This document shows, in pieces, positions 8,601-51,676 of a stretch of 64,000 bases of DNA; position 1 is the stretch's first letter; each line of letters begins with the position of its first letter. Position numbers and translations under genes: made by a program. The notes under the pieces were generated by a model. It searched no databases. It saw only the letters and a list, made by a program, of their open reading frames with translations, and was not told where the DNA came from. This DNA is from Octopus vulgaris (lineage: Eukaryota), in assembly GCA_951406725.2 (NCBI GenBank), contig OX597817.1:123318001-123382000 (forward strand). Direction: 5' to 3'.

Positions 8601-8765
8601 ATATATATATATATATATAGTTAAGTAATTGAGATTCTAGTGAATTCTAAAGAATTCACATGAATATGGTCCTTAACTAGGATGCACCGGATATCTATAT
8701 GGTGTTAGCCATACGACAAGTGGGGTGATTATAAATAGGAAAAAAGCAACAAGAATGGATTAAAA

Positions 8766-8853
8766 TCTCGGTACGATCGTTTCGTACGAGGACATATTTA
8801 ATAAGCTACAAAAAATGCAGTGAATACAGATGGCTCGTACTCGTCAGCCGAAA
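8766..8853 (-). ncRNA. Type I hammerhead ribozyme, minimal/dimeric PLE type
   Basis: Minus strand reads tttcgg-CTGACGA-gtacgag-(loop)-ctcgtac-GAAAC-gatc-GTA-ccgaga. Core is intact, with 7-bp stem II, 6-bp stem I and palindromic stem III. Confidence 0.88.
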
Positions 8854-9096
8854 AAATATCAGAGAATTCCCAAACATCAAAAGGGGTAGATATAAAAGAG
8901 GTTGTAGGATTAGCTGCATTGAAGAAAGTTCGATTCATGGAGATCTGATGAAAGGTTTTAAACCTATAGAATTTATGCATTCTATAGGTTTAAAACCTTT
9001 CATCAGATCTCCATGAATCGAACTTCTTCAATGCAGCTAATCCTACAACCTCTTTTATATCTACCCCTTTTGATGTTTGGGAATTCTCTGATATTT

Positions 9097-9183
9097 TTTC
9101 GGCTGACGAGTACGAGCCATCTGTATTCACTGCATTTTCGTAGCTTATTAAAGATGTCCTCGTACGAAACGATCGTACCGAGA
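9097..9183 (+). ncRNA. Type I hammerhead ribozyme, minimal/dimeric PLE type
   Basis: CTGACGA 9103-9109; stem II gtacgag 9110-9116 / ctcgtac 9159-9165; GAAAC 9166-9170; GTA triplet 9175-9177; stem I tttcgg/ccgaga. Confidence 0.9.
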
Positions 9184-9224
9184 TTTTAATCCATTCTTGT
9201 TGCTTTTTTCCTATTTATATATAT

Positions 9225-9390
9225 ATATATAAGTACATTAAAAGGCTTCCAGAAGAAGAAGTGAGTACTAGATACACAAACGTTGGATAAATTTAGTGAA
9301 ATGAAAATTAAAAAAATTAAAAACTTATCCAACTTTTGTGTATCTAGTACTCACTTCTTCTTCTGGAAGCCTTTTAATGTACTTATATAT
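9225..9390. repeat. Inverted repeat with 66-bp arms and 34-bp spacer
   Basis: 9225-9290 and 9325-9390 are reverse complements with one mismatch. Confidence 0.95.
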
Positions 9391-46736: not shown

Positions 46737-47212
46737 CGAGGAGTCAAATATTATCCACACTTTCGCCATAACATATCTTCATTACTGCCACATTACATTC
46801 TTCGCTTGCGTGCTTACAGTTGACATTATTGTGGTCATGCGATCGATGTTTGAGCTTGATCGCGCTATTTTTCATTTCGGCTTTACAGAGTAAGCTTGGC
46901 CGCTCCACTAACAATGTGCGCCAAAGAACAAAGAACAGTGATCATATTAACAGTGCAAGATACAGCGCTTTGCTTGCCAGCAATCTGAAGCCAGCAATTC
47001 GCATCAAACGCCGAAGCATATTGCCAAAGGATGTCTTGTTGTTGCATGGCAATGCAGGCCTACACACAGCCGCCCAGACCGTTGAAAGCATCAACTATTT
47101 ACATTTCCAAGTGCTTGAACGCTCCTTTCGACTATCATATCTCTGTGTCGCTCAAGGATTGATTACGAGGTCGTCGATTTCCTGCGGATGAAGATATGAA
47201 GGAAGCGGTGCA
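46737..47212 (+). mobile_element. Internally deleted mariner relic
   Basis: TA-cgagg start; ORF has INSARYSALL..LKPAIRIKRR..VLLLHGNAGLH (HDNA motif); truncated by (TG)n. Confidence 0.8.
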
Positions 47213-47891
47213 TATGTGTGTGTTTGTGTGTGTGTGTGTGTGTGTGTGTGTGTGTGTGTGTGTGTGTGTGTGTGTGTGTGTGTGTTTGTGCATGATAAAA
47301 CAACACTGGAATTTTTTTTTATAATACGAAATATAATTGAATATGAAATTATATAAATAAATACGTACACTGATTTCTTTTATGTTTTCTTTTGAAATTT
47401 GTGCTTATAAAAATATCTTGCCACAAACCATGACTAAAACCAACAATTAAAAGCCTGCAAAAGTTTTACTTAAAGTACTTGGCAAGCATTTAAATTTACC
47501 TCAAATTTCATTTTGTACTGCTCAATGAATGAAGACCTCATTAATGCATTACATCAGTAATACATATTGACATCTCGGTCACAGCTCGAACACTTTTTAA
47601 ATAGAGGTTTTCGTGTTACAACTTGTATATTTAATACATCTAACATGTAAGTCATATTTTTAAATTTCTATTTTACATAGCTTTCAGTTTGCAAGTTCGT
47701 CGCTTGCTATGAGGTTTTGCACGACAAAATGCTGTATTTTTAGCTATTTTTGTTATCGATATTTACAAATAATTAAACTTACGAAGGATACACACAAAAT
47801 ACACGTACACACTCACCTAGCCATACAAACATAAATATATATATATATACATACATACATACATGTATGCAAACACACTCACACACATATA

Positions 47892-48760
47892 CAGAGGGTG
47901 TTTGGGAGAAATTTGGTAATTTTTAGCTTTCCCTTTTTACAAGAACATTTCAATGCATGGGTTAACAGGCAACGAAGGGGATAATGATTAACGTTGTTGA
48001 GAAAAAGCTGACATAGAGGAATGGAATCCATCTGACAATTGGAAAAGAGTTATCTGTACCATGAGAATTCGATCCGATTATCAAAATACTAATGACTGTA
48101 GCCCAATGCTCTGTTAACAGTGTTAAAGGCTGCAAGGTGTGACATGGTCAGCTGCAAAAGAGACTACGAAAACATATGCAGCAGGAAGTTACACAGCCAG
48201 CGTTGTGACTGCGTCTGCGCATAAGAGTTCAACTTCAAAACTCTGAACAGTGTATTAGGCTCAGTTCAGATGATTATGTGAAGCTGTAGGGACTGTGTTC
48301 TATCCCAGGCTGGAAGGCTTTGCCGGTGGAAGCCAGTATGTGTTGCAGCAGGATTAGGCTTCTTGCCACACATCCGGGAAAGTCAGAAGTAGTTGTCGGA
48401 AAATATATACAACTTCACAAGCACCAATTTCTGGCTTCTTAATCACACCGATTGTAAGTCCTTGGATTAGTATGTGTGGGGCTCAGTTAAGAAAGATAAC
48501 AGTCTCTCTGCCTACAACACCAAGGCCGAACTAGTGGTAAATATCAAGGTGTTCGAAGATCTTTTCAGGGACACAGTGAGGAATGCGTACACCAGGTTCC
48601 AGCTTCCGGGTTCTAGAGCCGTCTTGAGGTCGAAGTGAAAGCTAAGGACAGCTACTTTGAATAAACTTATCTCCCATTCATAATCTAGTTGATATGTTTT
48701 TAATTTTTAAAAATGCTTTAAATTTTGGATGAGATGTAGTTTTCGTTCCTGTTTTGAGCA
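47892..48760 (+). mobile_element. Decayed Tc1/mariner-superfamily element
   Basis: TA-cagagggtg start; QQD*A..HT and FWLLNHTDCKSLD*YVWG motifs; related to 27740-28415. Confidence 0.75.
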
Positions 48761-51316
48761 CCAAAGTCAAAGGCTATTACCGTGTTGAATTAATTATGTA
48801 AATTATAACAATTCTTTACAATAACAAATAAAACATGTTTAATAAGTCCTTTTCTACGCTCTGAGTTTAAATCTCATTCGGATCAACTTTACTTTTCATT
48901 CATTCGGCTCAATAAATAAAATACCACCTCGGGATGATATGTTGACAGAAGTGTTAGTGCGTTTGACATCTGGAACCTGTTTCAGCTTTTTGAATCAGAG
49001 TTCAAACTTCCTCTAGAATTTTATATTCTTCTGCTTGTTCACAAGTCCACAATTGATCACAAAAACGGGTGAGTGGAAGGGTTTTGTGACAATCTGCAAC
49101 TGCAGTGAGGTCGAAAGACGACGACGACGATGACGATGATGATGATTATTGTGCTAGTGGCATTGAGAAAGCAGATGAGAAAGCGAGGGTGGGTTGTACG
49201 AAAGAAAATGAAAACCAAAAACTAAAAACCAGAATACTGTAAAAACAAGCGTTTATTCATGATCAATTCTTCAATCTTATTCATCTATTAAGCATTTGAA
49301 AGTAAACAATATAAATGTATGTAGTGGTAAATATCTTGATAATGTTTTATTCTGAATCTAATGCATTTATTTATTCATCCATTCGTTAATCAATTTTAAT
49401 CACTGGCACGCAAATGAAATTTCATTAAATTCCCTTACAAATATGATATTCAATATTGCTTTATTCCTTGTTTTGGAATAAACAAAGAAGTGTATGCAAT
49501 CTATCAAAATTATTTTTATCATAGAAATCCCTTCCTTGCTACTGTCCGACATTAAATCACAAATTAATTACTCTTATCATCTGGCGTGTCAGCCTTGCAG
49601 TATGTATATACTGGCACAGCAAGATGTCTCAGAACTAAACTTCCATTATCAGACTTAGAGCGCCAAATGCTGTGGCTTTTATTGGCATCTTGATTTATAG
49701 TTTGGCATCCAGCGGTTTGTGACCAGAATATCCGCACATATACACAAAGGTTCTTTGGTTTATGAAGCGATAGCTTTATGAGGAAGTCATACTGATAATA
49801 CAGCACTTCTGACCACCATATGTTAGTTAAGGTATAGTTTTCAATCCATCTTTGTTATTAATAGTATAAATAATATGCGCCATTCACTTCAATTACATAA
49901 GATAAGACAGGAATGACATCAAAGTATTTTCTAGGATCACAAAATATTTACTGATTCAAGCTGAATACTACATAAAATTCAATATATTTCATGTACTTTC
50001 ATCTATAGTTAAGTACAATAAATATCAATCAAGTTAATTAAACATGATAGAAGCATTACTTATCCTACATAGATTTTACTGTTCATTAGTAGTTATTTTT
50101 TTTATAGTAACATGCATAATATATATGTATTACTTCTAAAGTAGCAAAGTCGAAGCGGTAGAACACTAACTTAAATAGCTTATAGCATATGGTATTGGTT
50201 TACACAGTTCTTAGTTCAATTCTGGTATGGTTCGAATTTCCATTTCCCCTCACCAAAAATCATTAAACGTAGAAGTTTTAATATACCCAGAAAATTCTCT
50301 TACGCCCCAAATCAAAAGGGATCAATATTGGATTTGCACTTCAGAAAAGGGATTTTCTTTGATGTTATTTCAAATCTCTAATGTAGCTATTTCATATCGT
50401 GTAAGCTGTTAATATTTCTTTGAAAGTGCATGACAATTACAATTTATATTTTCCCTATACCCCCATTATATGAAGCCTTTGTTTCTATTCAAAATGAATC
50501 TGAAATAAGAGAAGTAGAAGAAATAACAAAAAAAAAAGCCTTGATAAGTTTTGTTATTCATTGGTTTCGGTCGTATACATGATAATGGCTAGCGTGCTAG
50601 AGAAATCTGACTCAGAAAAGAACCCCTAAAATCTTAAAAGCAAAATGTTATAGAAAGTCGCAACAAGTTGAGGTGTCCAATCTTTTCACCGTAGGCTTTC
50701 TTCCAAAGATAACCGGTACCTCCTGTCAAACGTTGGTTTCATATGCCACATGAAATGAGAGTAATCTTTAAATTCATAATGGATCAAAGAATATTCTACC
50801 GTTTTAACAGAAACAACACTTCTTTAATATGTAGAAAAATTTGTCGGTGAAACACTGTTTGAAACGGAGAGTGACAGTGCATTACACCTTTATCCATAGG
50901 TAAGCTACATAACCATTGTAGAAATTTTGAACCTTATCTGTCACATATGTTTGGAGACTCATCTCAAAGCAGAGTGGCGTCAGGGAGATTATCGAAATGA
51001 TGTAGATTAATTGAAACAGATATTATCTCTCAAGATGAAGTGATCATCATCGCACGCGCGCAAACACACACTCACATACAAACAAGCACACACACAAACA
51101 TGCACACATATACACACACAATTATACATACATATGTGTGTATATATACATATATATATATATATATATATATATATATATGCACGTCACTAAAGTGATT
51201 GAGTGTGCTAGTTAGCACCAGTATTGCTATAAATGAGAGTCAAGATATCTCATACACACGATAAGCACTATCTTAATGACTGACAAGAAAGGCAACCTCC
51301 CTCAGCACCGACTATC

Positions 51317-51363
51317 GCCAGATCACCAATGATTTCGAAATAACACTAATGCTCTTCAGTGGC
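51317..51363 (-). ncRNA. Degenerate type I hammerhead ribozyme
   Basis: Minus strand reads gcca-CTGAAGA-gcattag tg ttatttc-GAAA-tcattggtg-ATC-tggc. Core, stem I and near-palindromic stem III are present; stem II is mismatched. Confidence 0.55.
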
Positions 51364-51676
51364 TCTTACAGGTGCCTTGGATTAAATTCACATCTCCTTG
51401 TCACTTATAAGATCACCATAGAAATCATACGCTGATTTCATAAACGCTAAAAGTGAAAATTATAAATAAAAAGGGTTGCTTGTTTTCGAAGTATATGTAA
51501 ACGTACATACATACATACATATTCGTAACTATCTATCTATCTATTTATATATATATATATATATATATATATATATATATATATACGTATATATATAAAT
51601 ATATATATATATATATGCATATATATGTAAGTGTGTGTGTATATATATATATATATGCATATTGGGTTTAAGGATT

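Follow-up and report, generated by a model that had tools for sequence, protein, structure and literature searches.

Hammerhead ribozyme insertions at TA microsatellites of Octopus vulgaris: candidate ends of Hydra-clade Penelope-like elements and their putative ORF-less passengers

A 64,000-nucleotide stretch of the Octopus vulgaris genome (GenBank assembly GCA_951406725.2, contig OX597817.1, positions 123,318,001 to 123,382,000 of the forward strand; hereafter the window, with positions counted from its first letter) contains short insertions which share the type I hammerhead ribozyme (HHR) architecture and which mostly adjoin (TA)n microsatellites. This raises the question of whether these motifs are genuine ribozyme relics and, if so, which mobile elements placed them there. 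In the reading we favour, to which we assign a probability of roughly 0.8, families A and B represent 5'-truncated ends of Penelope-like elements (PLEs) of the Hydra clade, encoding a reverse transcriptase (RT) and a GIY-YIG endonuclease (EN), and families C, D and E are units lacking an open reading frame (ORF) that are likely to be mobilised by the same enzymes. The family labels refer to the insertions at 8.6-9.2 kb (A), 24.2 kb (C), 28.6 kb (F), 29.7 kb (B), 46.4 kb (D) and 51.3 kb (E).

The window was scanned with a descriptor of the type I HHR (CUGANGA, stem II, GAAA, stem III, UH, stem I), which retrieved three perfectly paired cores, five cores at one mispair or fewer and six at two or fewer, the corresponding means in block-wise dinucleotide-shuffled sequence being 0, 0.09 and 0.49. 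As the observed count was matched in none of 100 shuffles at any mispair level, the density of HHRs exceeds that of shuffled sequence, in agreement with what an earlier sequence-only reading of this stretch had claimed. Four of the five HHR loci named in that reading (8766/9097, 24214, 29729, 46388 and 51317) were recovered directly by the descriptor; the motif at 46388, being damaged in the window copy, fails it, but its attribution to an HHR family is sustained by other members of family D which show the full fold. The two motifs at 8766/9097 are indeed HHRs, to be corrected only in that they belong to one inverted insertion of one family, while the stem III sequences quoted (e.g. acgatcgt, atcatatgat, acatatgt and atctaggt) proved to be as stated. 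A sixth locus, 28665-28554 on the minus strand, was absent from that list. An Rfam scan of the window returned no hammerhead family among the matches listed (150 of 304), these being microRNA-type or similar, driven by microsatellites or hairpins, and all below the gathering score.

The scale of the phenomenon was assessed in a sample of sixty evenly spaced 10-kb stretches (599,800 bases), in which 17 motifs were found, of which six qualified as strict and 14 had a palindromic stem III, as compared to means of 0.75, 0 and 0.25, respectively, in 20 shuffles. Scaling from this sample gives an estimate of ≈76,000 HHR motifs genome-wide (43,000-124,000), the window being approximately three to four times richer in motifs than the sample average. 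Such a number has a precedent in the axolotl genome, for which up to 120,000 HHRs have been reported (PMC7229834). The strict motifs collected from the fetched loci as a whole, 122 distinct ones, group into 22 clusters with unrelated stems. The large radiation envisaged from the window alone is borne out.

Extension of the individual families was performed by searches of the genome (2.8 Gb in 227 contigs; fetched loci are designated by L numbers), in which at most 40 matches were scored per family search and first-look candidates do not equal copy numbers. Family A gave 1,015 first-look candidates with scored matches that are 97-99% identical, and family B gave 2,577 with scored matches of 97-98% identity. 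Family A copies extended in the 5' direction reach a GIY-YIG domain (PF01541, E=8.7e-5) and RT motifs; at L128 and L129 the open frames comprise 1,090 and 1,091 codons (1,072 amino acids (aa) from the Met), and the ATG is located ≈209 nt past the predicted cut of the upstream HHR. In a sister family, A2, two HHRs flank the coding region at a distance of 4,599-4,866 nt in 13 of 19 elements examined, which corresponds to the layout pseudo-long terminal repeat (pLTR), ORF, pLTR. Family B is linked to RT/EN at L137 and L138, and in the majority of 19 loci its tail lies ≈57 nt upstream of the ORF start. Therefore, the proposition that the units lack an intact ORF applies to the window copies, but not to families A and B, which are coding elements elsewhere in the genome; likewise, the suggested 5' extension to RT and GIY-YIG succeeded for A and B, whereas no linked ORF was obtained for C, D, E or F.

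A single ORF with RT followed by a C-terminal GIY-YIG is present in A and A2, and its parts are seen in broken copies of B. The RWK-type motif reads RWR in A, RWK in A2 and RWL in B, and DKT replaces DKG in all three. The A and A2 proteins possess a CxCX5C linker, CxxC and CxH in the EN and no CCHH, while the family B EN contains CxxC and CxH in a copy seen without the cysteine linker; a sense-strand canonical HHR is located in the pLTR of A, A2 and B. Published Hydra PLEs (Craig et al. 2021, PMC8557442) share the single ORF, the RWK-like, DKT, CxCX5C, CxxC and CxH motifs, the missing CCHH, the type I HHR on the sense strand close to the 3' end, the preference for (TA)n and the partial tandem or inverted structures. 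Based on these motifs, A, A2 and B are assigned to the Hydra-clade PLEs. A and A2 differ from the published members, which are generally shorter than 3 kb, in size (A ≈4.7 kb, A2 units 4,599-4,866 nt, a descriptive rather than a diagnostic trait), in their Asn-rich proteins, in 3' untranslated regions (UTRs) of ≈1.3 kb and in a long HHR loop 2. With their Asn-rich inserts the A/A2 proteins reach 950-1,072 aa, most of the 110 homologs retrieved with the A2 protein of L133 measuring ≈700-730 aa, and the named ones among them being from Argonauta and Octopus sinensis. A 150-aa RT query yielded 10,819 first-look candidates, many of the 150 that were scored residing in long open frames; PMC8557442 describes few extra families. 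Its supplement lists Hydra-1_Obim of Octopus bimaculoides (2,507 bp, (TA)n, HHR present); compared by eye, the Hydra-1_oBim HHR given there does not match that of any of the families A-F.

Some individual loci of the coding families are of separate interest. At L026:1256-1500 the first 50 ORF codons of a family B copy are joined directly onto the 3' UTR, which is a possible route from an autonomous element to a short HHR unit. At least seven B-related ORF starts, 3-4 kb apart, occur at G000:C20:23330769-23354567 in an arrangement suggestive of full-length elements in tandem. Near a family A copy, L061:2712-6345 is occupied by a Penelope-like element of another, GC-rich type, whose RT and GIY-YIG lie in long open frames.

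The first simple repeat encountered past the predicted ribozyme cut is (TA)n at 17 of 17 family A loci (at +35-39 in five and at +152-159 in 12; this count excludes one duplicate and the A loci of the window itself), at 19 of 19 B loci (+200-212), at 21 of 25 C loci, at 16 of 23 D loci (within 270 nt) and at six of the ten E loci that could be anchored, a further six out of 16 having given no anchor. In the systematic sample, (TA)5 occurs within 250 nt downstream of 10 of the 14 motifs with a palindromic stem III, compared to a background of 20% (p=5e-5). Both results substantiate the earlier notion that TA microsatellites serve as landing sites. The 3' ends cluster 35-260 nt past the predicted cut and, as read by eye, coincide with TATA/ATAT words in most cases where the continuing template is known; such words occupy 3-7% of template positions, and some of them are unused. 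With regard to the opposite end, none of 30 copies containing the ORF start has its 5' end at the predicted cut, the nearest being at +23, and 17 of the 30 extend 48-1,174 nt beyond it. In R2 elements, 5' ends pile up at the ribozyme cut site; an R2-like pile-up was looked for here and was found in none of the 30 copies. The fact that both the 5' and the 3' ends lie past the cut argues that the template RNA would span the ribozyme at both ends.

In the mechanism that we propose, the endonuclease would nick (TA)n, and the nicked end would serve as primer for reverse transcription, which would start at one or two fixed positions within the element, 35-260 nt downstream of the HHR, a step likely to be aided by a 4-nt AUAU/UAUA match. 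The template, an RNA spanning the ribozyme, would most likely be an uncleaved tandem read-through transcript. Copying would usually halt early, or flip so as to generate an inverted second copy, and copying beyond one unit would rebuild the upstream pLTR and thereby create a new master. The HHR is predicted to act in dimeric form by way of the palindromic stem III, probably trimming transcripts and probably not setting the insertion ends. Several of these features are known from the Anolis element Poseidon (Frangieh et al. 2024, PMC11167929), for which two internal initiation sites, a protein-assisted HHR and cleavage-independent insertion were described in vitro: common to both systems are a pair of internal sites past the HHR, a tail that may or may not be present, targets rich in AT and ends that do not fall at the cut site. 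Poseidon initiates in an AC-rich stem-loop of the ORF without target homology, whereas the sites described here are in the 5' UTR and mostly at TA-like words.

The predicted dimer rests on the structure of stem III. In each of the 13 clusters whose stem III measures 8 nt, clusters that may not be independent of one another, the central dinucleotide is self-complementary, a property that was not demanded by the filter; moreover, the isolated stem III gives no hairpin fold and is predicted to form a self-duplex of -5.8 to -14.4 kcal/mol. Because stem III is self-complementary, pairs with itself and forms no hairpin, these predictions would support selection for dimer pairing. This is in line with the minimal HHRs of PLEs (Cervera & de la Pena 2014, PMC4209133), whose cleavage was weak and confined to multimers or to forms in which helix III had been extended, dimer pairing having been proposed for them. 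Those ribozymes resemble the octopus motifs in their location in pLTRs, diversity between families, palindromic helix III and occurrence as single dispersed motifs or as opposite-strand pairs a few hundred bases apart, and differ in that the stem III palindromes are longer here (mostly 8 nt and up to 12). Within the family A clade (L129, L139, L141), the stem III variants ACGATCGT, ACGATTGT and ACAATTGT, together with the changes on both sides of stem I between A and A2, constitute a compensatory series.

Families C, D and E gave 839, 1,885 and 1,038 first-look candidates, with scored matches of 90-95%, 82-89% and 74-82% identity, respectively; most matches to one query containing a short interspersed nuclear element (SINE) were discarded and five new family E loci were kept. 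Upstream of the HHR, the sequence wraps into its own downstream sequence after ≈495 nt in C (16 of 25 loci), ≈460 nt in D (13 of 23) and 310-345 nt in E (7 of 10 anchored loci). The units thus measure 310-500 nt, with 31-40% GC and one type I HHR each, C and D slightly exceeding the retrozyme range of 150-450 nt. Two same-strand HHRs one unit apart were seen at none of 25 C, two of 23 D and none of 16 E loci (top hits), and partial tandems are common. No linked ORF was present in 40 C, 35 D and 28 E locus fetches, some of which overlap; extension of family F (19 first-look candidates) to an ORF also failed at 12 loci. Like the metazoan non-LTR retrozymes (PMC7229834; bioRxiv 10.64898/2026.07.22.740005), the C, D and E units are short, low in GC and ORF-less, carry a single type I HHR and co-occur with PLEs; unlike retrozymes, they are dispersed copies of ≈1-1.4 units with (TA)n ends and PLE-type inversions, full dimers being restricted to 2 of 64 loci. 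From these sequence features, C, D and E may be likened to retrozymes, a likeness that falls short of fully demonstrated membership. Animal retrozymes have themselves been argued to derive from PLE pLTRs (Li et al., bioRxiv 10.64898/2026.07.22.740005). The Penelope-like/retrozyme interpretation first made from the window is upheld by the RT and GIY-YIG in relatives of A and B and by the ORF-less wrap-around units of C, D and E.

At L136, L194 and L212, HHR elements of different families stand on either side of one (AT)n tract, neighbours which suggest repeated insertion into the same microsatellite. Hydra ORF matches beside C and D loci (L082/L136, L194 and L212) were considered as partners and rejected, being separate insertions across the (AT)n tract.

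The main competitor of a read-through template is a circular one, in which monomers cut by the HHR would religate and the RT would go round more than once; in that case C, D and E would be true circular RNA (circRNA) retrozymes. This is tentative and in our estimation clearly the less probable course of events, and it is most plausible for C, D and E. Insertions that cross the predicted cut at both ends are what it would produce, the units of families C, D and E are circularly permuted, four natural examples folding as circles better than shuffled sequence (z -2.5 to -4.7; 20 shuffles each), and metazoan retrozymes are expressed as circRNAs (PMC7229834). It would also explain why, among 11 young A2 elements, divergence between the 5' and the 3' pLTR amounts to 0.59% within an element as against 2.24% between elements, a value as low as the former having been obtained in none of 20,000 permutations. 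This similarity fits a circle and read-through alike, however, as matched pLTRs are also expected of tandem transcripts from homogeneous masters. Discrimination comes from discordant pLTR cells, of which there are five among 152 scorable ones at 15 polymorphic columns: in each of L139, L173 and L179, a variant present in one pLTR also occurs in other elements. Since a single circle cannot yield such discordant pLTRs, tandem read-through RNA or template switching is favoured. The scarcity of same-strand HHR pairs one unit apart and the finding that Poseidon HHR mutants insert unaffected in vitro (PMC11167929) also speak against circles. Comparison of contigs from four runs with L129 is uninformative on ends, strand and circularity, and the single 'goes back' joint that it gave was not used as evidence for circles, the same joint being found in genomic tandems.

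The remaining explanations concern the nature of the elements themselves. That C, D and E, instead of forming separate non-autonomous families, represent what remains of the pLTRs of old autonomous elements, the coding parts of which escaped sampling, would be consistent with their greater age (75-94% identity among matches) and with the severe 5' truncation also found in A and B; we consider it improbable, as the sequence upstream of their HHRs runs into its own downstream sequence after 310-500 nt rather than into a unique 3' UTR, a tandem of two full D units is present at L304, and the locus fetches described above revealed no linked ORF. Still far less credible, to the point of being negligible, is the notion that the motifs arose by chance or through fold-back errors of the assembly. 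It draws on the near-perfect inverted repeat at 8.7-9.2 kb, but the arms of this repeat differ in sequence and in tail length, inverted 5' copies are seen again at other, independent loci and are a described feature of PLEs (PMC8557442), and chance is excluded by the shuffle controls for both window and genome sample.

A number of observations nevertheless weigh against the PLE-based reading that we prefer. Minimum free energy folds of the window copies of B, C, D and E are not hammerheads, a hammerhead-like fold being reached by those of A and F only, which counts against ribozyme activity; in the window, moreover, families C, D and E are represented by degenerate copies. Pfam returned no family at E<=0.01 for four full-length proteins, and the RT fragment likewise had no match. 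Families C, D, E and F show no sequence link to an autonomous partner within 1.5-kb flanks, and the family loci, being top BLAST matches, are biased to complete copies. With respect to priming, the C end at +248 has no clear TA word, and Poseidon primes at non-homologous sites, unlike the microhomology proposed here (PMC11167929).

As for novelty, the class is already known: Hydra elements with HHRs and (TA)n targeting have been described, including in Octopus bimaculoides (PMC8557442), and whether these families had been catalogued, which the sequence-only reading had left undecided, is thereby largely answered at the level of the clade. What is new is the scale, the longer Asn-rich proteins, the presence of at least 22 motif clusters and the TA-like words at most priming sites. 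A literature search on octopus Penelope hammerheads or cephalopod hammerheads, to which most subscription papers were external, yielded nothing relevant besides PMC8557442, and one on PLE microhomology priming nothing specific among the matches listed. The 2026 repeat annotation of O. vulgaris (PMC13282606) reports 31 recently active Penelope-like families, and the words hammerhead, ribozyme and Hydra do not occur in its main text. Our results suggest that many octopus repeats classified as 'Penelope' or as unknown may be Hydra-clade ribozyme elements. Their value is that of a test system for two matters still to be settled, the role of the PLE hammerhead and the mobilisation of retrozymes (PMC8557442, PMC11167929). 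To this end the genome supplies young families (97-99% identity), uninterrupted ORFs of 950-1,072 aa, priming sites at defined positions, a single simple target and passenger candidates. A more ambitious picture, which we regard as doubtful though worth stating, is that of a still-active Hydra-clade radiation with ≈10^5 HHRs in more than 20 families, TA-microhomology priming unlike that of Poseidon, and C, D and E as circular-RNA parasites carried into microsatellites. If true, it would provide a natural autonomous-plus-retrozyme pair, its ORFs intact, for reconstituting PLE and retrozyme mobilisation in vitro.

In the window, family A is represented by a head-to-head inverted pair. Its inverted copy (8620..8975, minus strand; 96% identical to the full-length element of L129) contains the 3' UTR end, an HHR core at 8847 and a predicted cut after 8772, followed by a ≈154-nt tail up to (TA)n at 8599-8619, and its direct copy (8976..9219, plus strand) has a core at 9103, a predicted cut after 9177 and a ≈38-nt tail leading to (TA)n. 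Family C, with its ≈495-nt ORF-less unit, comprises a degenerate inverted copy (23769..24167, minus strand) and a direct copy (24164..24285, plus strand; core 24219, predicted cut after 24268), the stem II base of which is U.U, as is common in published Hydra HHRs (PMC8557442). Most copies adjoin (TA)n, as had been proposed, except for this 24.2-kb copy, which is without (TA)n at either end. The old, low-copy HHR element of family F (28480..28700, minus strand; core 28665, predicted cut after 28554) ends close to (TA)n at 28417-28478. The family B copy, a putative 5'-truncated end of a Hydra-clade PLE, spans 29530..29813 on the minus strand, with a core at 29805, a predicted cut after 29733 and a ≈204-nt tail followed by (TA)n. 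On the same strand, the ≈460-nt ORF-less unit of family D (46135..46515) has a damaged core at 46450, a predicted cut after 46393 and a short (TA)n end, and the ≈310-345-nt ORF-less unit of family E (51185..51500) has a degenerate core at 51359, a predicted cut after 51321 and a (TA)n end.

Directly beside family A, positions 9220-9395 hold a second inverted pair with 75-nt arms that are 95% complementary. Both of its outer ends adjoin short runs of TA, and it may represent a truncated tail left by some other element that targets TA; the systematic genome sample contains one relative (L269). Elsewhere in the genome, L059:488-5028 consists of an 84-bp tandem satellite in ≈54 copies. On the other side of family A, a repeat at 8369-8600 is located between two (TA)n tracts and presumably resembles a cephalopod tRNA-derived SINE.

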